DNA of 51,230 bases from an uncultured Candidatus Saccharibacteria bacterium. Lineage in GTDB: Bacteria; Patescibacteriota; Minisyncoccia; Sungbacterales; HO2-52-23. The notes under the pieces were generated by a model. It was given only the letters and a program-made list of their open reading frames with translations, was not told the origin of the DNA and did no database searches. The stretch spans positions 1 through 51,230 of the forward strand of contig CAZCSJ010000003.1 in NCBI GenBank assembly GCA_964501445.1, written 5' to 3'. Below are positions 18,101-43,643 of this stretch, in pieces. Both the position numbers and the translations under genes were made by a program. How positions within the stretch are numbered: position 1 is the first letter of the stretch; every line of letters starts with the position of its first letter.

Positions 18101-18109
18101 GCTGTATTT

Positions 18110-18465: not shown

Positions 18466-18500
18466 AACTCCCGAGGGGGGGGCTTAGATGAAGCGTTATT

Positions 18501-19499
18501 ATGAAATTGCAATTGAGCCATACGTTCGAAGATATTGTTAAAGTTGAAAATCTCTTGGAGGCATGGAGGGAATTTGTCCGCGGGAAACGGAGCAAGCGCG
18601 ATGTCCAAGAGTTTTCCTTTTCGTTAATGGATAGTATTTTCGCGCTTCACGGTGATCTCCGAAATCATACCTACTCCCACGGGCTGTATCAAGGGTTTTC
18701 AATCCATGACCCGAAGCCGAGGAGTATCCACAAAGCCACGGTACGCGACCGGCTTTTACATCACGCCATCTATCGGGCGCTGTATCCGTTTTTTGACAGG
18801 ACGTTTATCGAAGATTCGTATTCATGTAGGGTCAGGAAAGGAACCCACAAAGCAATGGCGTGTTTCAGGGAGTTTGGCTATCGGGTCAGTAAAAACAATA
18901 CGAAAACCTGCTGGGTGCTCAAATGTGACATCAAAAAGTTTTTTGCAAGTATTGACCAGGCGGTACTCCTCGAAATCCTCGGGCAGTATATTCCGGATAA
19001 AAAGATACTTTTGCTCCTGGATCGGGTGATCGGCAGTTTCGAGAGTACTGCTCCGGGCAAGGGTTTACCGCTTGGTAATCTCACCTCGCAACTTCTCGTG
19101 AATATCTACATGAATGAATTTGACCAGTTTGCGAAGCACACTCTGAAAGCCCGGCAGTATATCCGCTACGCGGATGACTTTGTGATTTTTTCGGAAGATA
19201 AAGAGCGGCTGGAAGAGTTGATACCGAGAATTGAGGAGTTTCTCGGAAGTCATCTGCGCCTCCGTCTTCATCCCGACAAGGTTTTTATCAAAACCTTTGC
19301 CTCGGGAGTGGACTTTCTCGGATGGGTGCATTTTCCGGATCATCGGGTGCTGCGCACCGCCACAAAACGGAGAATGATGAAAAAACTGGAGCAGTCGAAT
19401 TTACCCGAGACCCTTCAATCCTATTTGGGTTTATTGGGCCATGGAAATACCTATAAAATAAGGAAACAAATAGGGCGTGATTTTTCAGTTACTCTATGA
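18501..19499 (+). CDS. DGR reverse transcriptase
   Basis: 332-aa ORF with RT motifs (KPRSIHKATVRDRLLHHA; SYSCRVRKGTHKA), the DGR-typical motif-4 LPLGNLTSQLLVNIYMNEFD and the catalytic box YIRYADDFVIF. Confidence 0.9.
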   Translation: MKLQLSHTFEDIVKVENLLEAWREFVRGKRSKRDVQEFSFSLMDSIFALHGDLRNHTYSHGLYQGFSIHDPKPRSIHKATVRDRLLHHAIYRALYPFFDRTFIEDSYSCRVRKGTHKAMACFREFGYRVSKNNTKTCWVLKCDIKKFFASIDQAVLLEILGQYIPDKKILLLLDRVIGSFESTAPGKGLPLGNLTSQLLVNIYMNEFDQFAKHTLKARQYIRYADDFVIFSEDKERLEELIPRIEEFLGSHLRLRLHPDKVFIKTFASGVDFLGWVHFPDHRVLRTATKRRMMKKLEQSNLPETLQSYLGLLGHGNTYKIRKQIGRDFSVTL

Positions 19500-19511: not shown

Positions 19512-21323
19512 ATGTTTCGCCTAAAATTACGAGAGGCAATCAAGGGGGCAATAAAAGAAAAATTCAGGAATATTGAATCTCCTGATTTTTCGGTGGAGGT
19601 GCCGGAAAACTCCGCGCATGGCGATTATGCCACGAACGTCGCGATGGTGCTGGCAAAGGTATTGAAAAAGCCGCCGATGGCGATCGCGGAGGCGATTGCA
19701 CGGGGATTAGGAAGTCCTTCGACGGGCTCGGGAGATAATGGTAGCCCTTCGACGAGCTCAGGGCATATTACACGGGTGGAGGTTGTGGCGCCCGGGTTTA
19801 TTAATTTTACCGTCAGCGATGAAGCATTACTGCAGGCGCTACAAGACGTAGTGGCACATCCGGAAAAGTGGGGGAAATCGGATGTCGGGAAAAGCAAGAA
19901 GGTTATCGTTGAGTATTTTCAGTTGAATATCGCAAAGCGGCCGCATGTGGGGCATTTGCGTTCTGCAGTAATTGGCGATGCGCTCAAGCGTATGCTTCGC
20001 GCGGAAGGGTACAACGCCATTTCCGACACCCATGTGGGAGATTGGGGCACGCAGTTCGGGATTTTGCTTTTGCAATATAGAGAGGAAGGAGAGCCGGCAA
20101 TAAACGAGCAAGACCCTTTTGATGAACTGGAAAAAATATACCAACGAGGCGCCCAGCGCGCCGAGGCAGATACCGAGTGGCGCGAGAAGGCAAAAGGAGA
20201 ATTTGCAAAACTTGAGAAAGGGGATACAGAAAGGAGAAAGATATGGCAGTGGATGGTGGATGTGTCCATGAAAAAATTGGAAGAAAGCGCGGAGCGCCTC
20301 GGGCTTCTCCCATTTGACGAGCATCGCGGCGAGAGCGCGTATGAAGACGCGATGCCGCCGATTATAGATGAGGCATTACAAAAAGGCGTTGCGAAAAAAA
20401 ATGAGGACGGATCGGTGGTCGTGGATCTCTCGGAGGATGCGCTTGATGAAGCGGTATTGATAAAGTCCGATGGCGCAACGACGTATCTGCTCCGCGATCT
20501 TGCGGCGTTGAAATATCGCACGTCGCATCACGAATTTTTTGAGAATCTCTATGTGGTGGATGTGCGCCAAACCCATCATTTCCGGCAGGTGTTTCGGGTT
20601 GCGGAACTGCTCGGGTGGCGCGGTGTATCGGGAAGTCGTCACATCGCATTCGGATTTATGACGCTTCCTGAAGGCCCCATGAGCACGCGCAAAGGCACGG
20701 CGATTTCGCTTGATGCGGTGTTGGATGAAGCGGAGAGGCGCGCACGCGCAATAATTCAAGAAAAGAATCCGGAACTTGCGAATAGAGAAGAAGTCGCCCA
20801 AATGGTGGGTCTCGGCGCGCTGAAGTACTTTGACCTCTCACACAACAGAAAATCTGATATAGTATTTGATTGGGACCGCGCGCTCGCGTTTGAGGGAAAT
20901 ACAGGGCCTTATCTTCAGTATACGCACGCACGTCTCCGGAGTATTTTAAGAAAAGTAAATCCTTCGACAAGCTCAGGAAATATCTCCGGAGAGAAATCAA
21001 CAAGAGGAAATATCTCCCGAGCGAAGTCGAGGGACAACCTACAAGCGAGCGAATTGGATCCGCTTGAGCACCACATTGCGGCTTCAATCCTCCGTTTTCC
21101 CGAAGCAATTGAAGATACGTTGAAAGAGTACTTTCCGAATGTCCTTGTAAATTATTTATACCACCTCGCGCAGGTAGCAAATGAGTTTTACCACTCCCAT
21201 CCCGTGATGCAGGAGGAAGACGCAAAAAAACGCGCGGTGCGCGTGGCATTGGTGTCGGCCGCGGCAACAACGCTCAAAAATGGTTTAGGACTTCTCGGCA
21301 TTGAGGCGCCGGAGGAAATGTGA
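19512..21323 (+). CDS. argS: Arginine--tRNA ligase
   Basis: 603-aa ORF with an ArgRS N-domain (GDYATNVAM), the HIGH-region variant (AKRPHVGHLRSAVIGD) and a DALR anticodon-binding C-terminus. It contains two repeat-derived insertions. Confidence 0.93.
   Translation: MFRLKLREAIKGAIKEKFRNIESPDFSVEVPENSAHGDYATNVAMVLAKVLKKPPMAIAEAIARGLGSPSTGSGDNGSPSTSSGHITRVEVVAPGFINFTVSDEALLQALQDVVAHPEKWGKSDVGKSKKVIVEYFQLNIAKRPHVGHLRSAVIGDALKRMLRAEGYNAISDTHVGDWGTQFGILLLQYREEGEPAINEQDPFDELEKIYQRGAQRAEADTEWREKAKGEFAKLEKGDTERRKIWQWMVDVSMKKLEESAERLGLLPFDEHRGESAYEDAMPPIIDEALQKGVAKKNEDGSVVVDLSEDALDEAVLIKSDGATTYLLRDLAALKYRTSHHEFFENLYVVDVRQTHHFRQVFRVAELLGWRGVSGSRHIAFGFMTLPEGPMSTRKGTAISLDAVLDEAERRARAIIQEKNPELANREEVAQMVGLGALKYFDLSHNRKSDIVFDWDRALAFEGNTGPYLQYTHARLRSILRKVNPSTSSGNISGEKSTRGNISRAKSRDNLQASELDPLEHHIAASILRFPEAIEDTLKEYFPNVLVNYLYHLAQVANEFYHSHPVMQEEDAKKRAVRVALVSAAATTLKNGLGLLGIEAPEEM
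19716..19763 (+). repeat. Tandem CCTTCGACGRGCTCRGG arms, in frame in argS
   Basis: ccttcgacgggctcggg...cccttcgacgagctcaggg encodes SPSTGSGDNGSPSTSSG, inside the ArgRS N-terminal domain. Confidence 0.7.
20961..21033 (+). repeat. Palindromic CCTTCGACAAGCTCAGG...CGAGCGAAGTCGAGGG element, in frame in argS
   Basis: It encodes PSTSSGNISGEKSTRGNISRAKSRD. It has imperfect inverted arms and an internal direct repeat (ggaaatatctcc, twice). Confidence 0.75.
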
Positions 21324-21416: not shown

Positions 21417-24400
21417 ATGTCTAACGAAAAAACAAAATTTAATCTCCCTCAGGAGGAAGAGAAAATCCTGAAATTCTGGGAAGAACAGAGAGTTTTTGAG
21501 AAAACCCTTGCGCAAAAGAAAGGGCAGAAGACGTTTGTATTTTATGAGGGGCCGCCCACGGCAAACGGCCTTCCCGGGCTTCACCACATGCTCGCGCGGT
21601 CGTTCAAAGACATCATCTGCCGCTACAAAACCATGCGGGGTTTTTATGTCCCGCGCCGCGCGGGTTGGGACACGCACGGGCTTCCGGTGGAAATTGAAGT
21701 GGAGAAACAGCTCGGGTTCAAAACAAAGCAGGATATTGAGCGCTACGGCATCGGGAAGTTCAATCAGAAAGCAAAAGAATCGGTATGGAAGTATAAAAAC
21801 GAGTGGGAGCAATTTACCCGACGGATGGGGTTTTGGATTGATTTACAGAATCCCTATATCACATATGAAACATCATATATAGAAACCCTTTGGTGGATTA
21901 TCAAAGAATTTTGGAAGAAGAAATTGCTCGTCCGCGATTTTAAATCCGTGCCATGGTGTCCGCGCTGTATGACAGGGCTCTCAAGCCACGAAGTGGGGCA
22001 GGGCTACAAGCGCGTGAAAGATGCATCGGTATATGTGAAATTGAAAATTAAGGGAAAAGAGAATGAATATCTTTTGGTGTGGACGACTACTCCATGGACG
22101 CTTCCGGCAAATGTTGCGGTCGTGGTAAATCCCGGAATTGAATACACGAAATTCAAAGTGGGAGACCAGTATCTCTGGTCCAGCCGGCCGATTGCAGGAG
22201 AGTGGGACGCAAAGATCGCGGTCGCGGAGCGGGCATCGGGCAAAACGCTTGTAGGTATTGAGTACGAGCCGCTCTACCGCGTGCCAAGAGAGTATTCTCT
22301 TGGAATTGAGCCGCCCTATCGGGTATTTCCCGCGGATTTCGTGTCCGTGGAGGACGGCACGGGATTTGTGCATATTGCCCCTGCGTTCGGAGAAGATGAT
22401 TTGAATTTGATGAAATCTGTTTATGCACGTCACCCTGAACGCAATGGTCATCCTGAATCCTTCGATGGTCATTCTGATCCGCCAGCTGGCGGAGAAGAAT
22501 CTCAGGATAAACTCCGTGAAGGATCTCGGGATCCTTCGGCCTCGCCTCAGGATGACGATATGCCTCGGGATGATGGACGCCACTTCTTGTATCCCATTCT
22601 CCAAACCGTCAACCCCGACGGCACAATGAAAAGAGGAGTCATCGGCGAAGGGAAGTTCGTCAAGGAGGCGGATAAGGATATTGTCGCAGATTTGAGGAGC
22701 CGCCACCTGCTCTATAAGGAAGAGCAGTATGAACACGAGTATCCGTTTTGCTGGCGGTGTGCGACCCCGCTCCTCTACATGGCGCGCGAGGCGTGGTGGG
22801 TAAAAACGACAAAAGTAAAATCCGCGTTGCTGAAAAACAATGACACCATCAACTGGATCCCGGCGCATGTAGGGCGCGGGAGATTTGGCGAGTTTTTGCG
22901 CGAGAATCGCGACTGGGCGTTTTCCCGCGAGCGGTACTGGGGAACTCCGCTTCCCATTTGGGAGTGCGGGAAGTGTGGAGAACGCGATGTTATCGGATCG
23001 CGCGAGGAACTTGCGGCACGCGCGGCGCATCCCCACAACCGCTACCTCATCATGCGTCACGGCGAGTCGGAAAATAATGTGAAGGGAATTTTAAATTTTT
23101 CCATTGCAAAAAACCATTGGCATTTGACACTTCGCGGGAGAACGCAGGTAGAAAAAGCAGTAAAAGCGCTTCAGAAACAGAGCGTTGATGTGATTCTCAC
23201 TTCTGATTTTCTCCGCGCAAAAGAAACCGCGGATATCATGGGACGCACATTTAAAGTTCCCGTGCGCACTGATGCGCGGCTGCGGGAAGTTGAGGATCGC
23301 GCGTTTGACGGCAAGACCGTGAAAGAGTATGGCGACTGTTTTGTTTTTCACGGCGCACGGTTTCGTTCAGAAATGCTCGGCCTTGAGCCAATGGCGCACC
23401 TCCGCGCGCGCGTGCTTGCCGTAGTTCGCGATTGTGAAAAGAAATATAAAGGAAAGACGATTCTTCTCGTGAGCCATGATTATCCGCTCTGGATGCTTAC
23501 CGCGGGCGCGGAGGGGCTCACGGATGAGGAGACGATTTTGCGCCACAGCGGCAAATGCACAGAACATTTTCTGCCCAATGCCGGAGTGGAGGAGTTGGAG
23601 TATCGCGTGCTCCCGCGCGATGAGACCGGCGCGGTGAATCTCCATAAGCCGTATGTGGATGACGTTACGTTTTCCTGCGAGAAGTGTAAAGGTACGATGC
23701 GCCGCGTGCCGGAAGTGGCGGATGTCTGGTTTGATCCAGGAAGTATGCCGTTTGCCCAGGCACATTTCCCATTCCGGCAAAATCGTCATCCTGAGAGAGC
23801 GAAGCGAACGAAGGATCTTGAGATTCTTCTCCGCCAGTTGTCGGATCAGAATGACAATGGCTATTATTTTCCCGCCGATTACATCTCTGAAGCCGTAGAT
23901 CAAACCCGCGGGTGGTTTTATACGCTCCTTGCCGTTGCGACACTCCTCGGGAAAAAGGCGCCCTATAAAAACGTGATTTCGCTTGGCCATGTGCTGGATA
24001 AAAATGGTCAGAAAATGTCCAAGTCCAAAGGCAATGTCGTGGATCCCAACGAAATGATGGGGAAATACGGCGCAGATGCGCTCCGCTGGTATTTTTACAC
24101 CGTGAACGCCCCGGGAGAGGCGAAACATTTTGACGAAAAAGATGTGGCAGGGAAGCTCCGCGGATTTCTGATGACGCTTTGGAATAGTTTTCTCCTCTTT
24201 GATACTTATGTGAAGAAATCTACAACCTACAACCTACAACCTAAAACCTTGTATATCCTTGACCGCTGGATTCTCACGCGGCTCGATATGCTGGTTGCCG
24301 ATGCAACCAAGAAACTTGATGCGTATGACATCACGGGCGCTGCGCGCGCGATTGAAGAGTTTCTTATTAATGATTTTTCTCAGTGGTATCTGCAGCTTTC

Positions 24401-25112
24401 GCGCCGCCGCCTCCAGCGCCCCCGCTCGCGCGCTGAAAAAGAAGAAGTTACGCGTACCACCGGGGAGGTGCTCTTCACATTGTGTGTGCTTACCGCGCCC
24501 TTTGCGCCATTTTTCGCGGAGGTCATGTACCAGCGTCTTCGCAAAAAAATGGGGCTGAAAGACGCGAGTGTGCATCTCGCGGCGTGGCCAAAACAAGAAT
24601 CAAGAAGCAAGAATCAAGAATTAAAGGTTTTGAAGGATATGGACATGATACGGGCGGCGGTTGCCGAGGGTCTGCGGCTTCGCGCAGAGGCGGGTATTAA
24701 AGTGCGTCAGCCCCTCCGGCGTTTTTCCACCGTACTCCCCAAAACGCATGCGCGCGCGGCAGAACAGATTCTCCGCGAACGGCTCAATGTGAAGGAAGTG
24801 GTGTGTGGCGCAAAAAAATCTGCGTTGGATACAACCATCACGCCGGAGCTCCGTGAAGAAGGAATCGTGCGCGAGGTCATCCGCAACATCCAGGAGATGC
24901 GCCGCGACCTCGGGTTGACACCTCGCACAGAGATCAGGGTGCAAGGAGTGGGGCCTGCCGCGCTCACCGTGCTTTTGATTCGCGAAAAACGGGAGATTCT
25001 AAAAGAGGCAGGCGCGCGCGAGGTGACCGCAGGAGGAAAGAAAGTCTTTGACGCGGAGCGGGAGATTCCCATTGACGGAGAAATTCTTTGGCTTGGCATC
25101 CGGCGCGTGTGA
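21417..25112 (+). CDS. ileS: Isoleucine--tRNA ligase with an embedded histidine-phosphatase-like domain
   Basis: 1231-aa ORF with HIGH region (PPTANGLPGLHHM), CP1 editing domain (WTTTPWTLPAN; GTGFVHIAPAFGEDD), KMSKS (QKMSKSKGN) and Zn-finger CXXC motifs. It also has about 200 extra aa with an RHGE motif and two repeat-derived insertions. Confidence 0.93.
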   Translation: MSNEKTKFNLPQEEEKILKFWEEQRVFEKTLAQKKGQKTFVFYEGPPTANGLPGLHHMLARSFKDIICRYKTMRGFYVPRRAGWDTHGLPVEIEVEKQLGFKTKQDIERYGIGKFNQKAKESVWKYKNEWEQFTRRMGFWIDLQNPYITYETSYIETLWWIIKEFWKKKLLVRDFKSVPWCPRCMTGLSSHEVGQGYKRVKDASVYVKLKIKGKENEYLLVWTTTPWTLPANVAVVVNPGIEYTKFKVGDQYLWSSRPIAGEWDAKIAVAERASGKTLVGIEYEPLYRVPREYSLGIEPPYRVFPADFVSVEDGTGFVHIAPAFGEDDLNLMKSVYARHPERNGHPESFDGHSDPPAGGEESQDKLREGSRDPSASPQDDDMPRDDGRHFLYPILQTVNPDGTMKRGVIGEGKFVKEADKDIVADLRSRHLLYKEEQYEHEYPFCWRCATPLLYMAREAWWVKTTKVKSALLKNNDTINWIPAHVGRGRFGEFLRENRDWAFSRERYWGTPLPIWECGKCGERDVIGSREELAARAAHPHNRYLIMRHGESENNVKGILNFSIAKNHWHLTLRGRTQVEKAVKALQKQSVDVILTSDFLRAKETADIMGRTFKVPVRTDARLREVEDRAFDGKTVKEYGDCFVFHGARFRSEMLGLEPMAHLRARVLAVVRDCEKKYKGKTILLVSHDYPLWMLTAGAEGLTDEETILRHSGKCTEHFLPNAGVEELEYRVLPRDETGAVNLHKPYVDDVTFSCEKCKGTMRRVPEVADVWFDPGSMPFAQAHFPFRQNRHPERAKRTKDLEILLRQLSDQNDNGYYFPADYISEAVDQTRGWFYTLLAVATLLGKKAPYKNVISLGHVLDKNGQKMSKSKGNVVDPNEMMGKYGADALRWYFYTVNAPGEAKHFDEKDVAGKLRGFLMTLWNSFLLFDTYVKKSTTYNLQPKTLYILDRWILTRLDMLVADATKKLDAYDITGAARAIEEFLINDFSQWYLQLSRRRLQRPRSRAEKEEVTRTTGEVLFTLCVLTAPFAPFFAEVMYQRLRKKMGLKDASVHLAAWPKQESRSKNQELKVLKDMDMIRAAVAEGLRLRAEAGIKVRQPLRRFSTVLPKTHARAAEQILRERLNVKEVVCGAKKSALDTTITPELREEGIVREVIRNIQEMRRDLGLTPRTEIRVQGVGPAALTVLLIREKREILKEAGAREVTAGGKKVFDAEREIPIDGEILWLGIRRV
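22429..22579 (+). repeat. Composite nested palindromic insertion (GTCAYCCTGA...TCAGGATGAC family), in frame in ileS
   Basis: There are three left arms (gtcaccctgaac, gtcatcctgaat, gtcattctgatc). The central palindromes are tccgccagctggcgga and gaaggatctcgggatccttc. There are three right arms (ctcaggataa, ctcaggatgac, ctcgggatgatggac). It encodes HPERNGHPESFDGHSDPPAGGEESQDKLREGSRDPSASPQDDDMPRDDG. Confidence 0.8.
23035..23630 (+). other. Histidine phosphatase (phosphoglycerate-mutase-like) domain inserted in IleRS
   Basis: NRYLIMRHGESENNVKG...LTSDFLRAKETA...REVEDRAFDG...ILLVSHDYPL carries the RHG catalytic motif and the downstream SH motif. It is flanked by the IleRS blocks IGSREEL and NLHKPYVDDV. 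Confidence 0.7.
23785..23855 (+). repeat. Palindromic GTCATCCTGAG...TCAGAATGAC element, in frame in ileS
   Basis: gtcatcctgagagagcgaagcgaacgaaggatcttgagattcttctccgccagttgtcggatcagaatgac encodes HPERAKRTKDLEILLRQLSDQND, just before the conserved PADYISEAVDQTRGWFY block. Confidence 0.8.
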
Positions 25113-35162: not shown

Positions 35163-35485
35163 AAAAAGGAGAGGTTTGGCTTGTTGATATTCCCATTGCA
35201 AACGGGCATGAGCAGGGAGGATCGCGCCCCGTTATTGTTATCGCCGATGCACGGGCGAGTGTCGCGATAGTTATTCCTTGCACCTCTAACCTGCAAGCGC
35301 TCCGATTCCCATTTACTCTGCAGGTGAGCCCGTCTCGCGTAAATGGATTCCACACCGCATCCATAGTTCTCGTGCTTCAATTGCGAGCGATTGACAAGAG
35401 ACGCTTGCATAAAAAAGTAGGCATTCTTGAGAAGAAAACGCTCAAAGAGATTGATGGGATGGTTAAAAACCTTCTCGATATTTGA
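35159..35485 (+). CDS. mazF: Type II toxin, MazF/PemK family endoribonuclease
   Basis: 108-aa ORF with MKKGEVWLVDIPIANGHEQGGSRPVIVIA...IPCTSN...AIDKRRL, the typical MazF/PemK pattern. Confidence 0.85.
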   Translation: MKKGEVWLVDIPIANGHEQGGSRPVIVIADARASVAIVIPCTSNLQALRFPFTLQVSPSRVNGFHTASIVLVLQLRAIDKRRLHKKVGILEKKTLKEIDGMVKNLLDI

Positions 35486-38400
35486 TTGTGCGCTATCTCC
35501 CGCAACAATTTGAGAAAAAGTGGCAAAAGAAGTGGCTCAAAGAGAAAATCTATGAGCCCGATTTGGCGCGATCCGCAAGCCGGCGGAAACCTTTCTATAA
35601 CCTCATGATGTTTCCGTATCCGTCTGCGGAGGGGCTTCATGTGGGTAATATGTATGCGTTTACGGGTGCGGACATATATGGGAGATTCAAGCGGATGCAG
35701 GGATATGATGTGTTTGAGCCGATTGGGCTTGATGGGTTTGGGATTCATTCGGAGAATTATGCGATAAAAGTGGGCAAGCACCCTGCGGAGCAGGCGAAAA
35801 TTTCAGAGAAGAATTTCTACCGGCAATTGCAGATGCTTGGTAACGGCTTTGCGTGGAATGAACGGCTCGAAACCTACGACCCTGAATACTATAAGTGGAC
35901 CCAATGGATTTTTATCCAGATGTTCAAGCGCGGGCTCGCGTATCGCAAAAAGGCCGCGGTGAATTGGTGTCCTTCGTGTAAAACCGTGCTCGCGGATGAG
36001 CAAGTCATCCAAAAGAAGCAAGAAGCAAGAATCAAGAATCAAGGCAAAACGGTTAGTGTTTGCGAACGGTGCGAGACAGAGGTGGTAAAAAAAGAATTAG
36101 AGCAATGGTTTCTCAGGATTACGAATTATGCCGACCGCCTGCTTAAGAATCTTGAGAAGATTGACTGGTCAGAGAGAATCAAAATCGCGCAGAGAAATTG
36201 GATTGGAAAGTCGGAGGGAGCGAAAATTGAATTCCCGCTCACCTTGAATAAGGATACCAATTTTCTGATATTGCACGGTTATACCGGTCGCGCAGATAAG
36301 AATTTTATCCCTTGGTTAAAAAGAGAACTTGAATCGCGAGGATTTGAGGTGCACGCACCCCAATTACCGAATACAGATTTACCGAAGGAGTCGGAACAGG
36401 TGGGATATGTCCTCAAAAAATGTCGCATGGATGAGCACACGATTGTGATAGGTCATAGTTTGGGTGGCGCGGTTGCGATGAAGGCATTACAGAAGATTAA
36501 CCGTCCTATTGCGGGGCTCGTTCTTGTCGCTCCTACGGTAGAGCCACGATTCCGTACTGGAGCTGAAAGACCGTTCTGGAAAACCTTCTCTTTGGATTAT
36601 GATTACAAAAAAATTAAAAAACTTAGCGGATTCAGAGCGATCATTTCGGATACCCTCGAAAAGGACAAACGAGGCGCTTACTTGGAGTATTTATCGCAAA
36701 GAATATCAGCGTCTTTGTATGAGACCAAGGCAGGAAGAGTGCATTTTACTAGCAACAAAGAACCTTTTGTATTGGAGCATTTAAGTGCACCAATAACCGT
36801 TTTCACGACCCGACCCGATACGATTTTCGGAGCGACATACCTTGTGTTAAGCCCTGAATATCCGTTCGTGGAAAATCACAAATCACAAATCACAAATCAC
36901 AAAGAGGCAGAAGCGTATATCAAGAAAGCTGAATCAAAAACCGAAGAGGAGCGGATAACGGAAGGACGAGAGAAAACAGGCGTTGAACTCAAAGGTATAA
37001 AAGCGATTAATCCCGCAAATGGTGAGGAAATTTCGATATGGGTTGCGGATTATGTTTTAGGCGGCGTGGGAACGGGCGCAATTATGGCAGTACCCGCGCA
37101 CGACGAGCGGGATTTTGAGTTTGCACAAAAATATAATTTGCCGATTCGGATGGTCGTCTGCCCGCACTATCCAGAACCGACATGTCCAGTACTTGATAAT
37201 GCGTATATAGGCGTGGGGCATCTTGTAGATTCCGGAAAATTCTCCGGCATGGATTCCGAGAGCGCAAAATGGGAAATTACGAAATTCGTGGGTGGCAAGA
37301 AAACTTCGCAGTACCGCCTGCGCGATTGGCTTATTTCGCGTCAACGTTATTGGGGTCCCCCGATCCCCATGATCTATTGCGAGAAATGCGGCTGGCAGCC
37401 GGTGCCGGAAAAGGATTTGCCGGTGAAATTGCCGTATGTGAAAAACTTCCGTCCGACCGGAACCGAGAAATCCCCGCTCGCTACCGTAGAGAAATTTTGG
37501 AAAGTCAGATGCCCGAAATGCGGGTCTGCGGCGCGGAGAGAGACCGATGTATCGGATACATTTTTGGATTCTGCGTGGTACTACCTCGGATATCTCCTCG
37601 GAACGAAAAGCGAAAAGCGCAAAGCGAAAAACTACAACGCAAAACTTAAAACCCTTCCTATTGAGAAATCCATACTGAAGCGATGGCTACCGGTTGATAT
37701 GTATATTGGAGGGGCAGAACATGCAGTTTTGCATTTGCTCTACGTGCGTTTCCTCGCAATGGCGCTTCATGATATTGGAGTTCTGAATTTTCCCGCCCAA
37801 GGCGGGTCTGCCTCGGGCAGAGAGGAGCCGTTCAAGCATTTCCGCGCGCATGGTCTTATCATCAAAGACGGCGCGAAAATGTCAAAATCAAAAGGGAATA
37901 TCGTAAATCCCGATGACTACATTCGCGCCTACGGCGCGGACGCGCTCCGGATGTATCTTATGTTTTTGGGACCGTTTGAGCAGGGGGGCGATTTTCGCGA
38001 TTCGGGAATGAAGGGGATTACGCGGTTTTTGGAGCGCGCGTGGAAGTTTGCGAATCAGGTCATCCTGAGTGCGAAGCCCGAAGGATCTCGAGATTCTTCG
38101 CCTACGGCTCAGAATGACAACTTGAAGAGGTTAATTCATAAAACAATTAAAAAAGTCACGGAAGATATTGAGGGGCTTCAATATAATACCGCGGTTTCGG
38201 CGTTGATGGTTTTACTGAATGAATTTGAAGAGCATCGGGATAGCGTAATGTATGAGGATGTAAAAATATTTCTGAAACTTCTCGCCCCTTTTGCTCCCCA
38301 CCTCACGGAAGAATTATGGCAAAAATTGCAAAAGCAAAAGAAGTTTGCGTCTATTCATACGGAGCCGTGGCCAAAATATAATCTCAAATTATTGAAAGAA

Positions 38401-38586
38401 GATACTTTTGAACTCGTGATACAGATAAACGGCAAAGTCCGCGGACGGGCGACATTAGCCGTCGGCGCATCCGAGGCAGAAGCAAAGAAAGCCGCGCTCG
38501 CACTGCCGCAAGTAAAACAATATATCTCCGGTGAGCCAAAGAAAGTAATCTTTGTCCCCAACAAGCTCATCAATTTTGTGGTGTGA
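35482..38586 (+). CDS. leuS: Leucine--tRNA ligase with an embedded alpha/beta serine-hydrolase-like domain
   Basis: 1034-aa ORF with HIGH-region variant (PYPSAEGLHVGNMY), CP1 editing domain (FTTRPDTIFGATYLVLSPE; AIMAVPAHDERDFEFA) and KMSKS (AKMSKSKGN). It also has a ~180-aa insertion carrying GHSLGG and several repeat-derived insertions. The start codon (TTG 35482 or GTG 35488) is uncertain. Confidence 0.93.
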   Translation: MIVRYLPQQFEKKWQKKWLKEKIYEPDLARSASRRKPFYNLMMFPYPSAEGLHVGNMYAFTGADIYGRFKRMQGYDVFEPIGLDGFGIHSENYAIKVGKHPAEQAKISEKNFYRQLQMLGNGFAWNERLETYDPEYYKWTQWIFIQMFKRGLAYRKKAAVNWCPSCKTVLADEQVIQKKQEARIKNQGKTVSVCERCETEVVKKELEQWFLRITNYADRLLKNLEKIDWSERIKIAQRNWIGKSEGAKIEFPLTLNKDTNFLILHGYTGRADKNFIPWLKRELESRGFEVHAPQLPNTDLPKESEQVGYVLKKCRMDEHTIVIGHSLGGAVAMKALQKINRPIAGLVLVAPTVEPRFRTGAERPFWKTFSLDYDYKKIKKLSGFRAIISDTLEKDKRGAYLEYLSQRISASLYETKAGRVHFTSNKEPFVLEHLSAPITVFTTRPDTIFGATYLVLSPEYPFVENHKSQITNHKEAEAYIKKAESKTEEERITEGREKTGVELKGIKAINPANGEEISIWVADYVLGGVGTGAIMAVPAHDERDFEFAQKYNLPIRMVVCPHYPEPTCPVLDNAYIGVGHLVDSGKFSGMDSESAKWEITKFVGGKKTSQYRLRDWLISRQRYWGPPIPMIYCEKCGWQPVPEKDLPVKLPYVKNFRPTGTEKSPLATVEKFWKVRCPKCGSAARRETDVSDTFLDSAWYYLGYLLGTKSEKRKAKNYNAKLKTLPIEKSILKRWLPVDMYIGGAEHAVLHLLYVRFLAMALHDIGVLNFPAQGGSASGREEPFKHFRAHGLIIKDGAKMSKSKGNIVNPDDYIRAYGADALRMYLMFLGPFEQGGDFRDSGMKGITRFLERAWKFANQVILSAKPEGSRDSSPTAQNDNLKRLIHKTIKKVTEDIEGLQYNTAVSALMVLLNEFEEHRDSVMYEDVKIFLKLLAPFAPHLTEELWQKLQKQKKFASIHTEPWPKYNLKLLKEDTFELVIQINGKVRGRATLAVGASEAEAKKAALALPQVKQYISGEPKKVIFVPNKLINFVV
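36235..36785 (+). other. Alpha/beta serine-hydrolase-like (YdeN/RBBP9-type) domain inserted in LeuRS
   Basis: NFLILHGYTGRADKNFIPWLKRELESRGFEVHAPQLPNTDLP...HTIVIGHSLGGAVAMKAL...GLVLVAP carries the nucleophile elbow G-H-S-L-G-G. It lies between the LeuRS blocks NWIGKSEGAKIEF and VFTTRPDT. Confidence 0.7.
38059..38118 (+). repeat. Palindromic GTCATCCTGAG...CTCAGAATGAC element, in frame in leuS
   Basis: gtcatcctgagtgcgaagcccgaaggatctcgagattcttcgcctacggctcagaatgac is 60 nt (20 codons) and encodes VILSAKPEGSRDSSPTAQND. Confidence 0.8.
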
Positions 38587-38617: not shown

Positions 38618-38706
38618 AATAGTTAGTTCTTTGGTCGTCGAGAGTTCCGCAATGGGCGGAACAGACCACCACAATATTGTCAGAAGACGAGGAAAGGAGA
38701 ATCGTC

Positions 38707-39264
38707 ATGATACAGCATGTCAAGGCGAATCTGTATAAGGAGCAGGATGCCCAGCTTACGAAAATCAAGCGGCAGCTCCGACAAAAGTCGGGCTATCCGT
38801 TCAACCCGCAGAAGTTGAAACTCGTGCTTCAGGCGCTCATAGAGGGGCGGTTTGACGGCATCAAGTCACCGGATGATTTCTTCTGCGCGGTGTTCCGCCG
38901 GAGCGAGCAGATCACTATGTGTAAACGAGTTATAATCAATTCTCACCTGCTGCGAATCGATGCATTTCAGCAGAAGGTCTGGGTGGACGATCAGCTTGTT
39001 GAACTGACCCCTACAGAGCTTCAGTTGCTGAACTACTTCCTGCAACAGCACGATCAGATACTGACCTGCGACGAACTAACCGAGGCAATCTGGAATCTCG
39101 CTCACACGGACACCCAGACATTGAAGGTGCACTTGTGCCGAATGCGTCGCAAGCTCTCCCGGTACCTTCCTGATTGTCCACGTCTCATTGGGTCCATACA
39201 CGGTGTGGGGTACCGATTCAACCTGTCCGGTCAGGACCGGCCTATCGCGGTCTCCGTCAAATGA
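38707..39264 (+). CDS. Orphan OmpR/PhoB-type winged-helix DNA-binding protein with a DGR-target-like N-terminal module
   Basis: The likely start is ATG 38707 (MIQHVKANLY...), preceded by ggaaaggagaatcgtc as at 17004. The C-terminus LTPTELQLLNYFLQQHDQILTCDELTEAIW...TLKVHLCRMRRKL...IGSIHGVGYRF is a trans_reg_C-type wHTH. There is no receiver domain. Confidence 0.75.
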   Translation: MIQHVKANLYKEQDAQLTKIKRQLRQKSGYPFNPQKLKLVLQALIEGRFDGIKSPDDFFCAVFRRSEQITMCKRVIINSHLLRIDAFQQKVWVDDQLVELTPTELQLLNYFLQQHDQILTCDELTEAIWNLAHTDTQTLKVHLCRMRRKLSRYLPDCPRLIGSIHGVGYRFNLSGQDRPIAVSVK

Positions 39265-39331: not shown

Positions 39332-39594
39332 GCGAGACGGAATATAAATAGGTATAGTTATATACGATAGGTAATGCTTTTAAGCGAGCCTATCGCACGC
39401 GAGACCAGGTTAACGCCCTTCGACAAGCTCAGGGAATATAAAGTAGATACTCTAAGCGAGCCTCATATGTCTTCGAGACCATTATGGAGGCGCGCGGCTT
39501 GGATCCCGCGAAGCGGGACGCGCGCCGAATAGTGAGCGATGCCGCCCGCAGGAGGCGGCGAGCGTGTCGAGAAGGTATATGAGCGAACGACAAT

Positions 39595-41436
39595 ATGTGT
39601 GGAATTATCGGCTACATCGGCAAACAAAAGGCAGTTCCCATCGTGCTTGATGGGCTGAATCAGATGGAGTATCGGGGGTATGATTCCAGCGGCATTGCAG
39701 TACTTGAAGGCGATGGGTCAGTGAAAACCGAGAAGGCAGTCGGTCGTATTGTGAACCTTGAAGAAAAGTTGTTAGGGAATCATTTGAATGGCGTGGTTGC
39801 AGTGGGGCATTCCCGGTGGGCCACTCATGGGGGTGTGACGGAAGCGAACGCCCATCCGCATTCGGACTGCAAAGGCGCAATTCATCTGGTCCATAACGGC
39901 ATTGTAGAGAACTATAAGGAACTCAAAGCAGAACTCATAAAAAAAGGACACACCTTTACATCAGAAACAGATACCGAGGTGCTGGCGCATCTTATTGAAG
40001 AAGCAAGAATTAAGAAGCAAGAATTAAGCATTGAAGACGCAGTGCGTTTCGCGCTTAAACGCGTCCGCGGAACCTACGGCCTTGCGATTATTGACAAACG
40101 CGAGCCGCAAAAACTCATTGCCGCGCGGAATTTCAGCCCTCTGCTTTTGGGCATCGGCGAGGGCGAGTATTTTGTGGCATCCGACGCATCAGCAGTTTTG
40201 CGGCACACGCGGCACGTCGTGTATCTTGACGACGGCGAGATGGCAGTCATCACCCCGGATGGCTACCGGATTTTTGACCTTGGCAGGAATCTTCGCGACA
40301 AGCCGTCCCAGCAGATTGAATGGTCGGTGGAACAGGCGCAAAAAGGCGGGTATTCGCATTTTATGTTAAAAGAAATTTTTGAGGAGCCGGAAGCGATTGA
40401 AAATACGCTCCGCGGACGAACGATTCCTGCAGAGGGGCGAGTGCGTCTGGGGGGGCTCACCGATGTGATGGACCAACTCAAATCCACAAAGCGGATTTTG
40501 ATTTCTGCGTGCGGCACGGCGTATCTTGCGGGGCGCGTCGGCGAGTACATGCTTGAGGAGTATGCCGGGATTCCGGTGGAGGTGGACCTCGCATCAGAAT
40601 TTCGCTATCGCAAGCCCGTATTCCGCGAGGGCGATCTCTTTCTTGCGATCTCGCAGTCGGGCGAGACCGCCGATACTCTTGCCGCAATTCAGGAGGCGAA
40701 AGAAAAAGGAGTGCCGGCATTCGGAATTGTGAATGTCGTGGGCTCCACAGTTGCGCGCACCACCGACGCGGGGGTGTATCAGCACATCGGGCCGGAGATC
40801 GGTGTTGCGTCTACGAAAGCGTTTGCGTCGCAGGTTGCGATTTTAGCGCTTTGGACCGTGCTTCTCGGCCGCCAGCGCGATATGTCGGTTGTGACCGGCA
40901 AGCGAATTCTCACGGAACTCAATCGGATTCCTGATTTGATGCGTCGCGTAGTCGCGCAAAATAATTCGGTGAAGGCGCTCGCCGAGAAATATAAACATTG
41001 CAATAATTTCTTTTTTCTTGGCCGCAAATACAATTTGCCGGTTGCATCGGAGGGCGCATTGAAATTGAAGGAAGTGTCGTATGTGCACGCGGAGGGGTAT
41101 GGCGCAGGCGAGTTGAAACACGGGCCCATTGCGATGATTGATGAAAAACTTCCTTCGGTTGTCATCGCACCTCAGGACTCGGTGTATGAAAAAATGCTTT
41201 CAAATATTGAGGAAATCCGCGCGCGCAAGGGCCCGGTGATCGCGATTGCGACCGAGGGAGATAAAAAAATCGCGGAACTCGCGGACGACGTGGTGTATGT
41301 TCCCAAAACCCTTGAGATGTTAACTCCCCTTTTGGCAGTAGTACCCCTCCAGATGTTTGCCTACCACTTTGGCGTGGGCAAGGGATATGACGTAGATAAA
41401 CCGAGAAACTTGGCGAAGAGCGTAACGGTAGAATAG
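39595..41436 (+). CDS. glmS: Glutamine--fructose-6-phosphate aminotransferase (isomerizing)
   Basis: 613-aa ORF with N-terminal MCGIIGYIG (Ntn Cys), two SIS domains and a C-terminal ...DKPRNLAKSVTVE. Confidence 0.95.
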   Translation: MCGIIGYIGKQKAVPIVLDGLNQMEYRGYDSSGIAVLEGDGSVKTEKAVGRIVNLEEKLLGNHLNGVVAVGHSRWATHGGVTEANAHPHSDCKGAIHLVHNGIVENYKELKAELIKKGHTFTSETDTEVLAHLIEEARIKKQELSIEDAVRFALKRVRGTYGLAIIDKREPQKLIAARNFSPLLLGIGEGEYFVASDASAVLRHTRHVVYLDDGEMAVITPDGYRIFDLGRNLRDKPSQQIEWSVEQAQKGGYSHFMLKEIFEEPEAIENTLRGRTIPAEGRVRLGGLTDVMDQLKSTKRILISACGTAYLAGRVGEYMLEEYAGIPVEVDLASEFRYRKPVFREGDLFLAISQSGETADTLAAIQEAKEKGVPAFGIVNVVGSTVARTTDAGVYQHIGPEIGVASTKAFASQVAILALWTVLLGRQRDMSVVTGKRILTELNRIPDLMRRVVAQNNSVKALAEKYKHCNNFFFLGRKYNLPVASEGALKLKEVSYVHAEGYGAGELKHGPIAMIDEKLPSVVIAPQDSVYEKMLSNIEEIRARKGPVIAIATEGDKKIAELADDVVYVPKTLEMLTPLLAVVPLQMFAYHFGVGKGYDVDKPRNLAKSVTVE

Positions 41437-41444
41437 AGGGATGA

Positions 41445-41550
41445 ATCCCGTTAGAAATCTTGGGAGCCTTCGTATATCATGTTGATCTCGTAGATTATGA
41501 CTATGAAAATACTACATATGGAACATCAGACCTTACATTTCTAACGGGAT
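41445..41550. mobile_element. ~102-bp TIR element (MITE-like), copy 3, abutting a start codon
   Basis: TIRs are ATCCCGTTAGAAAT / ATTTCTAACGGGAT. It is flanked by atga on both sides. The right TIR supplies the AT of ATG 41549. Confidence 0.6.
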
Positions 41551-42640
41551 GAAGTTATACGAATGTGAGGGAAAAAAATTGTTTATCCAGTACGGTATTC
41601 CGGTGCCTGCCGGAATACTTTGTGATACGGCATCTCGCACAAAAAAAATACCATTTGCATTTCCTCGGGTGCTGAAAGCCCAGATGCTCTTTGGGGACCG
41701 GATGAAACGCGGGGGCATTGTGTTTGTAAAAAATGAACGCGAGTACCGTGCGCGTCTTACCTCTCTTTTGGGAGGCACCGTGACGCGCGTGCCAGTGGAG
41801 CGGGTGCTTGTGGAGGAAGCGTTGCCGGTTGCGGCAGAATATTACATTTCTCTTTCCTATGACACGGACACGCGCGGGCCGATGCTCGCGGTTTCTATAA
41901 AAGGGGGATCGGGTGTGAAGCGCGCGCACCTCTCTTCGGTGGATGCGGTGATCGGTATGCCCGGGTTTAGCGTGCGAAGCGCCCTCCTCCAGGCAGGATT
42001 CCCACGGGGGGATGTGCCGGCAATTACCGAGATCATCCAAGCGCTCTGGAACTGTTTTCTTGCAGAATATGCCCTGCTTCTGGAAATCAATCCGTTGATA
42101 AAAACAAAGGACGGAAGGTTTGTCGCGGGCGACGCGAAAGTGATACTGGACGACGCGAAGGTGAATCCCGGCGAGCGTCGATTCATTGAGATGAAAGGCG
42201 ATATTGCAATACTTGCGTCCGGCGGAGGGGCGTCGCTTGTAAACATTGATACACTTCTCCATTTCGGGGGAAGGCCCGCAAATTACACCGAGTATTCTGG
42301 AAATCCCCCGGCGCACGTGGTGAAGGAATTAACAAAAAAAGTTCTTGAACGATCAAACCTCAAGGGGTGCTGGGTCGTGGGCGGCACCGCAAATTTCACG
42401 GATATTTTTGAGACAATGAATGGATTTATTGAGGGGTTGCGGGAGGTACGCCCAAAGCCGACCTACCCCATTGTCATTCGCCGCGACGGGCCGCGACAGG
42501 ACGAGGCATTCCGGATGCTTACGGATGTGGCGCGAAAAGAAGGGTACGATTTTCACTTATGTGGCCGCGAAACATCAATGTCGGAGAGCGCAAAGAAAAT
42601 GGTTGAGCTCGCGTACGGTAACAGGACGAAACGCGTATGA
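41549..42640 (+). CDS. sucC: Succinyl-CoA synthetase beta-subunit-like ATP-grasp protein (possibly citryl-CoA synthetase large subunit)
   Basis: 363-aa ORF. MKLYECEGKKLFIQYGIPVP matches the SucC N-terminus pattern (LHEYQAK.LF..YG.P.P). It has an ATP-grasp domain plus a CoA-ligase domain and is shorter than a canonical SucC. Confidence 0.75.
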   Translation: MKLYECEGKKLFIQYGIPVPAGILCDTASRTKKIPFAFPRVLKAQMLFGDRMKRGGIVFVKNEREYRARLTSLLGGTVTRVPVERVLVEEALPVAAEYYISLSYDTDTRGPMLAVSIKGGSGVKRAHLSSVDAVIGMPGFSVRSALLQAGFPRGDVPAITEIIQALWNCFLAEYALLLEINPLIKTKDGRFVAGDAKVILDDAKVNPGERRFIEMKGDIAILASGGGASLVNIDTLLHFGGRPANYTEYSGNPPAHVVKELTKKVLERSNLKGCWVVGGTANFTDIFETMNGFIEGLREVRPKPTYPIVIRRDGPRQDEAFRMLTDVARKEGYDFHLCGRETSMSESAKKMVELAYGNRTKRV

Positions 42641-42641
42641 G

Positions 42642-42744
42642 TCCCGTTAGAGATAGCATGTTGAATATCGTAATTAGAAAAAAAAAACCCCAAAAGTTGG
42701 AGAGGTTGTATGTGTTTTATTCATAGTCCAAATCTCTAACGGGA
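42642..42744. mobile_element. ~101-bp TIR element (MITE-like), copy 4, between the sucC-like stop and the sucD-like start
   Basis: TIRs are TCCCGTTAGAGAT / ATCTCTAACGGGA. It is flanked by ATGAGT on both sides. The left ATGA contains the sucC-like TGA stop and the right ATG is the sucD-like start. Confidence 0.6.
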
Positions 42745-43643
42745 TGAGTATTCTGATTGATAAAAAAACACGTGCAATTCTTCAGGGGATCACCGGCCGC
42801 GAGGGTTCTCGCGCGTGCCGCGAGATGCGCGCGTACGGCACAAAAGTTCTTGCGGGCGTCACTCCGGGCAAAGGCGGTCAGAGCGTGGACGGCGTGCCGG
42901 TGTATGATACGGTGGGTGAGGCAGTGGCGTGCCACAAAGGAATCAATGCGACACTCATTGCCGTACCCGGGCCTTTTGTGCGAGATGCGGCAATTGAGGC
43001 AATTACCGCAGGCATTCCATTGATTGTGATATTGACCGAACACGTGCCGGTGCAGGATAGCGCCTTTCTCACGCGATATGCGCGTTATAGAAAGGTGCGT
43101 ATTGTCGGCCCCTCGTCGGTCGGCATCATCTCTCCGGGAAAAGGAAAAATCGGGAGTATTGGGAGCGGCGGTACTGCGGACGTCTTCAGTAAAGGTCCAA
43201 TAGGACTCATTTCTAAAAGCGGAGGAATGATTGCAGAGATCGCATCTATCCTCACCAATGCCGGTTTGGGGCAGAGTACTGCGGTGGGTATTGGCGGAGA
43301 CATGGTGATCGGGTCGGATTTTGCGGATCTTTTGGAACTTTTTGAAACGGATAGCGCCACGCGCGCGGTGGTGCTCTTCGGCGAGATTGGCGGCACCTAC
43401 GAGGAGCGCGCGGCTTCTCTCATCCGGTCAAAGAAAATTCGCAAACCCGTTGTTGCGGTGGTGGCGGGGAAATTCTCTCGCTTTCTGCCTCCGGAATCTG
43501 TGTTGGGACACGCGGGCGCGATTGTCGCGCGCGGAAAAGGAGGGTATCATTCAAAAATAAACGCATTTCGGCGCGCAGGAGTGCGTATTGCCTACGACAT
43601 TGATGATATTCCAGAGCTCGTGCGCCGTGCGCTTAAGAGATAA
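42744..43643 (+). CDS. sucD: Succinyl-CoA synthetase alpha-subunit-like protein
   Basis: 299-aa ORF with MSILIDKKTRAILQGITGREGS...GVTPGKGG and the phosphohistidine loop SVLGHAGAIV. Confidence 0.88.
   Translation: MSILIDKKTRAILQGITGREGSRACREMRAYGTKVLAGVTPGKGGQSVDGVPVYDTVGEAVACHKGINATLIAVPGPFVRDAAIEAITAGIPLIVILTEHVPVQDSAFLTRYARYRKVRIVGPSSVGIISPGKGKIGSIGSGGTADVFSKGPIGLISKSGGMIAEIASILTNAGLGQSTAVGIGGDMVIGSDFADLLELFETDSATRAVVLFGEIGGTYEERAASLIRSKKIRKPVVAVVAGKFSRFLPPESVLGHAGAIVARGKGGYHSKINAFRRAGVRIAYDIDDIPELVRRALKR

Follow-up and report, generated by a model that had tools for sequence, protein, structure and literature searches.

Small MITE-like hairpin elements at gene start codons in Patescibacteria and other bacteria

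How can a repeated hairpin of about 100 nucleotides (nt) come to lie exactly on the start codons of unrelated genes and leave each of them with an ATG? This question is raised by four copies of such an element in a stretch of 51,230 nt from an uncultured Candidatus Saccharibacteria bacterium (contig CAZCSJ010000003.1; this whole stretch is called the window). We consider it likely that the element is a non-autonomous transposon resembling a MITE (miniature inverted-repeat transposable element), which makes a 4-base-pair (bp) target duplication, is aimed at start codons in one orientation, and is tolerated via translational coupling. What the sequences themselves show is its anatomy, the duplication, an empty site, a tie to gene starts, an orientation that does not vary and the spread of one subfamily to unrelated genes in different genomes.

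The copies lie on the forward strand at 9592-9694 (copy 1, 103 nt), 9699-9800 (copy 2, 102 nt), 41446-41549 (copy 3, 104 nt) and 42642-42744 (copy 4, 103 nt). An earlier note on this DNA, made from its letters alone, had reported the same four copies with coordinates 1 nt off through inclusion of a flanking A/T pair. All four start with TCCCGTTAGA and end with TCTAACGGGA, and the ends, 13-14 bp long, are perfectly complementary in 4/4 copies. Exactly eight matches to the 9-mer CCCGTTAGA are found in the window, where about 0.39 are expected in 51 kb on both strands; they form four inward-facing pairs with a spacing of 82-84 nt. The GC content of the copies is 35-42%, compared with 50.5% for the whole window. 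They are predicted to fold into hairpins with a 14-bp terminal stem (minimum free energy -28.7 to -40 kcal/mol, z -2.8 to -5.0), and the predicted stem includes the A and U of the true AUG. The interior blocks common to copies 1 and 3 and the TGtTATAAT of copy 2 (TGTTATAAT), both pointed out earlier, are present; copies 2 and 4 share sub-terminal bases only.

Read in gene orientation, the layout is an upstream A, TGAA, the element from TCCCGTTAGA to TCTAACGGGA, TGAA again and the rest of the open reading frame (ORF). Copy 2 rebuilds the ATG (9800-9802) of an MFS_1 gene (9800-10450, + strand), contributing A9800, and the right-hand duplication TGAA follows at 9801-9804. The ATG of a gene with ATP-grasp_2 and Citrate_bind domains (41549-42640, +) is rebuilt by copy 3 through A41549 (TGAA at 41550-41553), and that of a CoA_binding/Ligase_CoA gene, CoA-ligase alpha-like (42744-43643, +), by copy 4 through A42744 (TGAG at 42745-42748). 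On the other side, the left flanks of copies 1-4 read ACGAA, ATGAA, ATGAA and ATGAG. The ATG at this position, which we call the ghost ATG, belongs to ATGAA at 41441-41445 in copy 3 (duplication TGAA, 41442-41445) and to ATGAG at 42637-42641 in copy 4 (duplication TGAG, 42638-42641). Copies 1 and 2 form a tandem pair, copy 1 being the upstream partner. They have the TGAA at 9695-9698 in common, which together with A9694 gives the ghost ATG 9694-9696, and the left flank of copy 1, CGAA at 9588-9591, is a decayed TGAA whose ghost ATG is now ACG. With this one decayed side, the window copies are flanked by a 4-nt duplication, TGAA or TGAG. The earlier note had placed every right end at a gene start, which holds for the three genes behind copies 2-4, copy 1 ending on its tandem partner. 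It had also described a flank repeat ATGA(A/G)T; the left flanks of copies 2-4 are indeed ATGAA or ATGAG, but the duplicated unit is TGAA or TGAG.

Two samples place these copies in a wider family, and the figures given for them refer to the matches listed. For sample 1, one genome per species was scanned for TCCCGTTAGA-N70-95-TCTAACGGGA, which gave at least 119 stretches and a set of 128 copies from about 115 genomes. Sample 2 consists of independent metagenome contigs anchored on the left end only (ATGAA followed by TCCCGTTAGAA), with 115 left ends that leave room for analysis and a right end sought within 200 nt. Identical 4-nt flanks were found in 88/128 copies of sample 1, and in 74/105 of those at start codons. 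They differ by site, being TGAA, TGAG, TGGA or TGCA at starts and TAAA, CCCG, CTCG, TCAA or CTAA elsewhere, and since the flanks match on both sides while varying between sites, the target duplication is 4 nt long. A right end lies within 200 nt for 108/115 left ends of sample 2; it is followed by TGAA in 105 of these 108, the ATG is rebuilt in 107, and a long ORF follows in 103. Upstream of four unrelated start copies (loci L025:4812, L064:6262, L068:5101 and L079:2013) ACTTG replaces ATGAA, and there is no duplication.

Elements are 52-140 nt long. In sample 2 the right end is the exact complement of the specified left end in 87/106 copies. Positions 11-13 of the terminal stem covary (92-99% Watson-Crick, four pair types), as do positions 12-13 in sample 2 (94-99% Watson-Crick), and where an end departs from the usual sequence, which is rare, the opposite end carries the matching change (CCCC/GGGG, GCCC/GGGC, TCAC/GTGA). 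The ORFs within copies are upstream ORFs (uORFs) of 5-40 codons only, with nothing conserved beyond MxPVR. Stand-alone short hairpins of 29-71 nt with the same ends are also present in several genomes.

The host of the window is a groundwater member of the Patescibacteria (candidate phyla radiation, CPR), and the nearest relatives of its proteins, at 63-65% identity, come from bins with labels such as Portnoy-, Sung-, Colwell- and similar candidate groups. Most hosts in sample 1 are likewise Patescibacteria (Saccharibacteria, Paceibacterota/Parcubacteria groups), among them the complete genome CP011215.1 (locus L088). The others are Omnitrophota, Planctomycetota (including Sedimentisphaerales and Pirellulales), Elusimicrobia, WOR-3, Stahlbacteria, Desulfobacterales and Smithellaceae, together with three bins labelled Gammaproteobacteria. 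One phage contig, the sole viral contig found with a copy, carries it at the start of an SU10-type adaptor gene. This phage copy (L122:3735-3828) holds nested smaller hairpins of like kind (TCCCGTTAGAT...TTTCTAACGGGG and CCCTGTTAGAGG...CCTCTAACAGGG) and has AGGAGG 11 nt before the ATG.

Is the element an insertion or an ancestral part of these loci? The closest syntenic relative, L123 (63% amino-acid identity), has the same gene order as the window: glmS, two ligase genes, a citrate-synthase domain gene and an acetyltransferase. The site of copy 3 is empty in L123, with 13 nt between glmS and the first ligase gene. The site of copy 4 is empty as well (...AAAAACATGAGTATTTTGGTTGATAAAAAAA), and the two genes overlap there by 4 nt, with ACATGAGTATT as stop and start; ...ACATGAGTATTTTGGTTGATAAAAAAA in L123 corresponds to ATGAG, element, TGAGTATTCTGATTGATAAAAAAA in the window. 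In the window, copy 4 splits such a former ATGA overlap, the TGA at 42638-42640 being the stop of the upstream gene. The proposal that removal of copy 4 restores the overlap is therefore borne out by the arrangement predicted for an empty site, and the nearest orthologous loci, examined for an ancestral element, are without one. Copy 3 begins 9 nt past the glmS stop codon (41434-41436), and this insertion is also found in the near-identical contigs L001 and L002. We considered a Tn7-like attachment downstream of glmS for copy 3 and regard the position as a coincidence, as the same family is found at about 100 unrelated genes.

Movement is also seen between genes. Interiors that are 70-80% identical (in some comparisons up to 96%) precede unrelated genes in different genomes, a comparison of sequences that shows the movement of one subfamily to unrelated genes across genomes. 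Conversely, some genes are occupied in two or three genomes each, namely atpA, pheT, ssb, HPF (hibernation factor), secG and the sucD-like gene, and the interiors at a shared target gene are mostly unrelated between genomes; the start of the sucD-like gene, for example, carries an unrelated copy in L023 compared with copy 4 of the window. Tandem copies such as copies 1 and 2 also occur. The targets include essential genes (atpA, pheT, ssb, clpP, secG), pilC and transporters, and are housekeeping genes with no functional relation, which led us to reject a regulon of target genes.

How closely is the element tied to start codons? In sample 1, drawn from about 115 genomes, 105/128 copies lie on the ATG of an ORF that is 60 codons or longer, which confirms an association that had been suggested from the window copies. 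We counted the word ATGAA in loci from which the elements had been computationally removed, taking as start the first ATG of an ORF of at least 100 codons. These reconstructed empty loci have 260 occurrences at ORF starts, 408 in non-coding DNA and 2132 within ORFs, and the ATGAA-flanked insertions number about 51 at starts versus about 4 elsewhere. A simple preference for this word fails to reproduce the pattern, because copies away from starts mostly have flanks other than ATG. Among the youngest copies (nearest neighbour at least 80% identical), 13/15 are at starts, the exceptions being at a contig edge and a tandem partner; this argues against the slow loss of neutral copies as the cause. 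Some sequence preference extends past the ATG. The second codon begins with AA in 63% of targets and in 25% of control genes from the same loci, and 36% of targets versus 18% of controls are preceded by a -10 box whose end is 5-7 nt from the ATG, a leaderless spacing. In the window, a -10-like TAGAAT (41429-41434) ends 6 nt before the ghost ATG of copy 3, a leaderless-type spacing. Our conclusion is that the element is directed, on insertion, to A^TGRR where genes start (carets mark the cut).

The same transposon could also give this picture with no active recognition of starts, by inserting with a loose 4-bp preference (T-N-N-A, purine-rich). Nearly all other insertions would then be lethal or quickly deleted, while one at A^TGNN would be self-repairing and its imprecise deletion would kill the gene. 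Such survivorship fits the non-start duplications, which are diverse and of the TNNA type (TAAA, TTTA, TCAA, TTGA), and the symmetry of the ends, which should favour a symmetric target where the ATG signal is asymmetric. It also fits the compactness of these genomes, about 84% of the loci lying under ORFs of at least 100 codons. We nevertheless find it unlikely. Start positions make up, by a rough estimate, 1 in 40 of the non-coding TNNA sites yet hold about 85% of copies, and non-coding ATGAA, the more frequent of the two in the counts above, has received far fewer insertions than ATGAA at starts. Copies a few nt upstream of an ATG should be no more harmful, but are rare (L095, L098), and the youngest copies sit at starts already.

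The element is also inserted in one direction. Although its ends are symmetric, the interior is oriented non-randomly relative to the gene: the internal motif CGGG is found on the gene strand versus the opposite strand 34 versus 2 times in sample 1 and 36 versus 7 times in sample 2, and 10/10 pairs with similar interiors are co-oriented. The motif usually lies 10-40 nt from the 5' end as ...ACGGGA(A/T), where local pairing with the left end is possible. Survivorship could filter orientation too, as a 5' CGGGA can pair locally with the left end and free the AUG end, whereas the reverse orientation would lock the AUG. Under directed insertion, one possibility, which we advance tentatively, is that the mobilising machinery reads the start of translation or transcription rather than a DNA word, that the architecture of the element makes insertion into essential genes harmless, and that such a system has spread over Patescibacteria, Omnitrophota, Planctomycetota and phages. 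Such machinery might, for instance, be a transposase or a target selector able to dock at the first codon, on open complexes of RNA polymerase or on initiation complexes. This idea draws on the leaderless-type promoters, which are twice as common at targets as at controls.

What, then, becomes of the interrupted gene? The ghost ATG is kept in 82/105 copies, even where the two following bases have drifted, and the uORF that starts there reads M-x-P-V-R-... without conserved sequence deeper in. In sample 1 the uORF frame runs through the interior without a stop in 38/105 copies, whereas the two other frames do so in 14 and 7 and shuffled sequences in 11; in sample 2 the figures are 52/106, compared with 21 and 18 for the other frames and 16.7 for shuffled sequences. 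An open uORF is thus 3-4 times as frequent as an open control frame. Where such an open uORF belongs to an element with a length of 0 mod 3, it ends at the TAA of TCTAACGGG, 7 nt before the AUG, and with a length of 1 mod 3 it ends at a TGA that overlaps the AUG (AUGA). The class that would continue in frame (2 mod 3) is the rarest (47/212 versus about 71 expected; chi-square about 12, p about 0.003), and only 2/20 of its members in sample 1 are open. In sample 2, 10/107 ATG-rebuilding copies read through in frame as N-terminal extensions. Among elements read in frame (length + 4 divisible by 3), the copy at L009:4498-4604 lies 14 nt inside an ORF (codon 5) and would add 37 codons, and in L136, L163, L186 and L232 the ghost ATG yields an N-terminal extension. 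Within the window, the uORF of copy 2 has 33 codons, from the ghost ATG at 9694-9696 to the TAA at 9793-9795. That of copy 3 has 14 codons and stops early at the TGA 41483-41485, and that of copy 4, which relays from the upstream stop, has 29 codons and ends at the TAG 42724-42726, 20 nt before the AUG.

These features suggest how an insertion could be tolerated. A staggered cut would bracket positions 2-5 of the ORF (A^TGRR^) and leave the original ATG behind as the ghost ATG, while the terminal A of the element and the duplicated TG would rebuild an ATG on the gene side. Ribosomes would start at the ghost ATG, keeping the promoter, leaderless 5' end, Shine-Dalgarno (SD) sequence or upstream-stop coupling of the gene. 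Translation of the short uORF would melt the terminal stem of 13-14 bp, in which the A and U of the true AUG are otherwise paired, termination would take place at the right-end stop (the TAA at -7 for lengths of 0 mod 3, the TGA on the AUG for 1 mod 3), and reinitiation would follow on the rebuilt AUG. Expression must survive the insertion, as the targets include essential genes, and tolerance through translational coupling is what we infer from the sequence features of the uORF. A hairpin that sequesters the AUG had been put forward as an alternative to mobility. The A and U of the AUG do lie in the predicted stem, but this would be an effect of the insertion and not the source of the element, and the uORF suggests that translation from the ghost ATG opens the stem.

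We considered a promoter, SD sequence or terminator built into the element and rejected it. The -10-like boxes show no bias of strand or position. For SD-like words there is a modest enrichment at 20-40 nt from the 3' end, seen in a minority of copies. Consensus scans of the window copies stay at chance level. No RNA runs were found for two peat-bog loci from metagenome-assembled genomes (MAGs).

Alternatively, the insertion might be silent because it is removed or skipped at the RNA level, by self-cleavage, by protein-assisted splicing between the 4-nt repeats or by ribosomal bypass, for which hopping in phage T4 gene 60 and the 'byp' elements of Magnusiomyces mitochondria are analogies. Direct repeats do flank a stable hairpin exactly at the codon that needs restoration. 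We give this idea very little credence, however. The interiors are unrelated, so there is no conserved catalytic core, and they match no ribozyme or intron family. The open uORF frame, the stops beside the AUG and the in-frame depletion point to ordinary translation, and a segment removed from the RNA would not need such uORF features.

A non-autonomous transposon would be moved by a transposase acting in trans, and the earlier note had suggested looking for a cognate one with matching ends. None was found near the copies. Within about 4-10 kb of the copies there is no recurrent transposase-like family, and clustering of all ORFs of at least 200 amino acids (aa) near copies returned housekeeping families only. 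In the loci searched, ends separated by over about 230 nt never enclose an ORF, and a long element ORF is reached from 0/115 left ends. Orphan ends, examined as autonomous partners, could be traced to abbreviated elements (29-71 nt), to variants (CCCC...GGGG, TCTAAACGGGA) or to remnants of tandems, and a 1.5-kb stretch between two copies in L025 has no transposase inside. A start-codon trap, in which the ghost ATG would open a fused transposase ORF (MNPVR...), fits 0/115 left ends. Two orthologous RibD_C/DHFR-like genes do begin MNPVRN..., encoded by ATGAA followed by TCCCGTTAGAA (L130:1-1488, reverse strand, and L161, left end at position 2761 of the reverse strand). No right end was found near these two left ends, and the N-terminus appears to be a retained left-end remnant of the element.

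Several points weigh against a mobile element tolerated by coupling. The defining helper enzyme is missing, as there is neither a transposase family nor an autonomous copy among 964 ORFs of at least 200 aa from about 240 loci. No presence/absence polymorphism was found in a closely related genome pair, the empty sites being at about 63% amino-acid identity. Both samples demanded exact end sequences, and the taxonomy of the carriers is that of MAG labels. An early uORF stop is present in about half of the copies, including copy 3, so coupling cannot be the sole route of expression. In the window each of the eight 9-nt ends is intact although the interiors are by now nearly random relative to one another, which suggests a constraint on the ends beyond mobility. 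Finally, two Yanofskybacteria carry an element of the same subfamily at secG (L030:1242-1351 and L072:1982-2091), and the element is 94-95% identical where the secG genes are 73% identical and their third codon positions 56%. Functional constraint or re-invasion fits this better than neutral decay; the hairpin, and at times its interior, may be under constraint at the level of the host or be replaced when the same site is invaded again.

Such constraint would be expected if the hairpin were a host cis-regulatory device, an RNA or DNA operator at the translation start that is bound by a regulator or sequesters the AUG and is not, or no longer, mobile. Perfectly conserved ends with drifting interiors, covariation at stem positions 11-13, compensated variant ends, the A and U of the AUG inside the stem, the fixed orientation and the secG pair are all in keeping with this. 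We still judge it very unlikely, as the 4-nt flank duplications vary with the gene's own second codon, orthologous sites are empty in relatives, the targets have no functional theme, and tandem, non-start and phage copies exist. On the sense strand, moreover, G-U mismatches are not in excess of A-C (8 versus 10 in sample 1, 0 versus 7 in sample 2). Nor is there a matching Rfam family: in the window the tmRNA alone exceeds gathering thresholds, and 9540-9850 remains empty at E up to 10. A cis-regulatory structured RNA was rejected on similar grounds, as only the terminal stem is conserved, there is no gene theme, orthologous sites are empty and Rfam gives no match. The transposon could still have been co-opted secondarily for regulation.

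The MITE-like nature of the element, with a preference for ATGA-type starts and a duplication that regenerates the start, had been suggested at the outset, and it is supported by duplications in two samples, by 105/128 copies at starts and by the empty L123 site. It fits the structural description of MITEs in PMC3184786: the length is under about 400 bp, there is no transposase ORF, terminal inverted repeats and a fixed 4-nt duplication are present, and dispersed subfamily copies occur along with empty homologous sites, the latter in a distant relative rather than a sister strain. The remaining hallmark, an autonomous partner or transposase sharing these ends, was not found in the search near copies. 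Bacterial MITEs such as Correia/CREE, RUP, ERIC and Nezha are about 100-150 bp long, with inverted repeats, a target duplication and no transposase gene; they form long hairpins, are often 5' of genes and influence expression, and ERIC-type repeats have a TA motif at the target (PMC3184786). The present family resembles them in size, inverted repeats, duplication, hairpin fold and position 5' of genes. It differs in its 4-bp duplication inside the start codon, in its single orientation, in rebuilding the ATG, in its presence in several phyla rather than one genus and in its almost unconstrained interiors. The bacterial MITE families named above have TA or longer duplications and are scattered through intergenic DNA, and the target duplication of Correia is TA. 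Correia elements have a 26-bp inverted repeat and are found in Neisseria (PMC3184786). Membership in Correia/CREE was rejected on account of the different end sequence, the 4-nt duplication and the different hosts.

Among repeats linked to an ATG, the closest earlier cases are REP2 of Neisseria and IR-A/IR-B of Borrelia, which lie directly upstream of genes, bring the ATG and form stem-loops near the 5' end; they are described as a cassette of promoter, ribosome-binding site and ATG, with no inverted repeats or duplications mentioned (PMC3184786). Unlike these, the present element gives one base of the ATG, has no consistent promoter or SD sequence, and shows transposition by its duplication. 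Rickettsia palindromic elements (RPE) are about 105-146 bp long (PMC3184786). Like them, the present element is palindromic and tolerated against coding sequence, and a minority is in frame (the 10/107 and the codon 5 copy of L009 mentioned above); unlike in RPE, the in-frame length class is depleted and the usual site is the start codon. RPE insert inside ORFs in frame.

Other small hairpins are spread by enzymes of a different kind. REP/REPIN elements (moved by RAYT, a Y1 enzyme) and IS200/IS605-derived elements are hairpins of about 30-100 nt with conserved sequence and pairing, spread in trans by a single-copy enzyme. Insertion by IS200/IS605 is specific in sequence and orientation, and both kinds of element go in 3' of a fixed tetra- or pentanucleotide, without duplication and mostly between or after genes. 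We rejected membership in REP/REPIN-RAYT because of the 4-nt duplication and because no recurrent flanked gene was found. We also rejected derivation from IS200/IS605, whose derived elements lack terminal inverted repeats, as the inverted repeats here are perfect and the duplicated flank varies (TGAA, TGAG, TGGA, CTCG...) and matches on both sides. No Y1 gene was seen near copies. Members of piggyBac and IS1380 make 4-bp duplications (4-5 bp in IS1380), have CC(C) ends and use T...A targets, which for piggyBac are TTAA entered in random orientation. The resemblance in 4-bp duplication and CC(C)-type ends is at most a possible lead, and no transposase of the piggyBac/IS1380 type, which would be a DDE enzyme, was found near copies. 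Integron attC sites are imperfect hairpins of similar size with GTTAGA-type (GTTRRRY) and TCTAAC-type (RYYYAAC) boxes, like the present elements. They carry R'' (RYYYAAC) on the 5' side and R' (GTTRRRY) on the 3' side and lie at the 3' end of cassettes. Membership was rejected, since the box order here is reversed (GTT/AAC at the outer stem end, GTTAGA first on both strands) and the elements lie at gene starts, with target duplications, outside cassette arrays.

Known transposon targets include tRNA genes, REP sequences, attC sites, short DNA words and the terminators of glmS. No description was found of a transposon that normally lands on start codons, whatever the gene, with fixed orientation and self-repair of the ATG. 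The full-text literature, searched also with the end sequences as strings, gave no prior description of the family, in agreement with the earlier statement that no such start-specific element was known. If true, the proposal raises the matter of start-codon recognition at the DNA level and of the tolerance of minimal CPR genomes for mobile DNA in essential genes, and a machinery that reads start complexes would be a new mode of target selection. The element would also be a natural system for termination-reinitiation and leaderless translation in uncultured phyla. For annotation, gene callers will often misplace starts or call uORFs of 30-40 codons as genes, and, should the enzyme come to light, the target rule (A^TGRR, one orientation) may be of interest for start-codon-directed insertion tools.

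The window sequence was detected in three groundwater DNA runs only (assembled contigs); many further copies of the element are present there, and no empty allele was seen in these runs. The two genes behind copies 3 and 4 had been called sucC-like and sucD-like. They are ligase genes, but the first has a citrate-binding domain and the pair is followed by a gene with a citrate-synthase C-terminal domain, and the two-ligase operon therefore looks like the ATP-citrate-lyase or citryl-CoA type and not plain sucCD.

Apart from the element, the window holds other repeats. A diversity-generating retroelement occupies 17004-19499, with a variable repeat (17534-17646) at the 3' end of the ORF 17004-17648, a template repeat at 17991-18103 and a reverse transcriptase gene (RVT_1) at 18501-19499; all template/variable mismatches inside the repeat are at template adenines. 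A direct repeat of 165 nt with 78% identity (16988-17152 and 38691-38855) overlaps, with one copy each, the start of the retroelement's target ORF and that of a Trans_reg_C regulator gene. Arrays of 2-5 units of a purine-rich 7-nt unit (GAATCAA / GAAGCAA / GAATTAT), with at least 15 register-matched copies, are found at 3501, 11349-11398, 12326, 24591-24640, 34255, 34424, 36009-36058, 39987-40036, 46455 and 50435, and most appear in gaps between listed ORFs. A 37-nt sequence (TGCAGAAATTT...AAATTCTGCA) is present three times (2604-2640, 3219-3255 and 12932-12969). Its copies at 3219-3255 and 12933-12969 are perfect reverse complements, and those at 2604-2640 and 3219-3255 lie on either side of a gene for a PaaX-type regulator (2643-3206). 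Another repeat family, with the core CCTTCGACAAGCTCAGG, has six copies (11498-11536, 14086-14108, 19716-19768, 20961-20983 and 39401-39439), of which some are within long ORFs (PolX, ArgRS) and the rest between genes or directly behind them; it may be a further small inserted element.

A tmRNA gene lies at 15404-15769 on the reverse strand, with the tag peptide ANVFSMPTARPAFAVA. Two class-I tRNA-synthetase genes carry extra enzyme domains (21417-25112 and 35482-38586). The ORF at 21417-25112 contains a His_Phos_1 histidine-phosphatase domain at residues 544-706, and in L001, a co-linear contig, the corresponding called gene has serine-hydrolase/abhydrolase matches.

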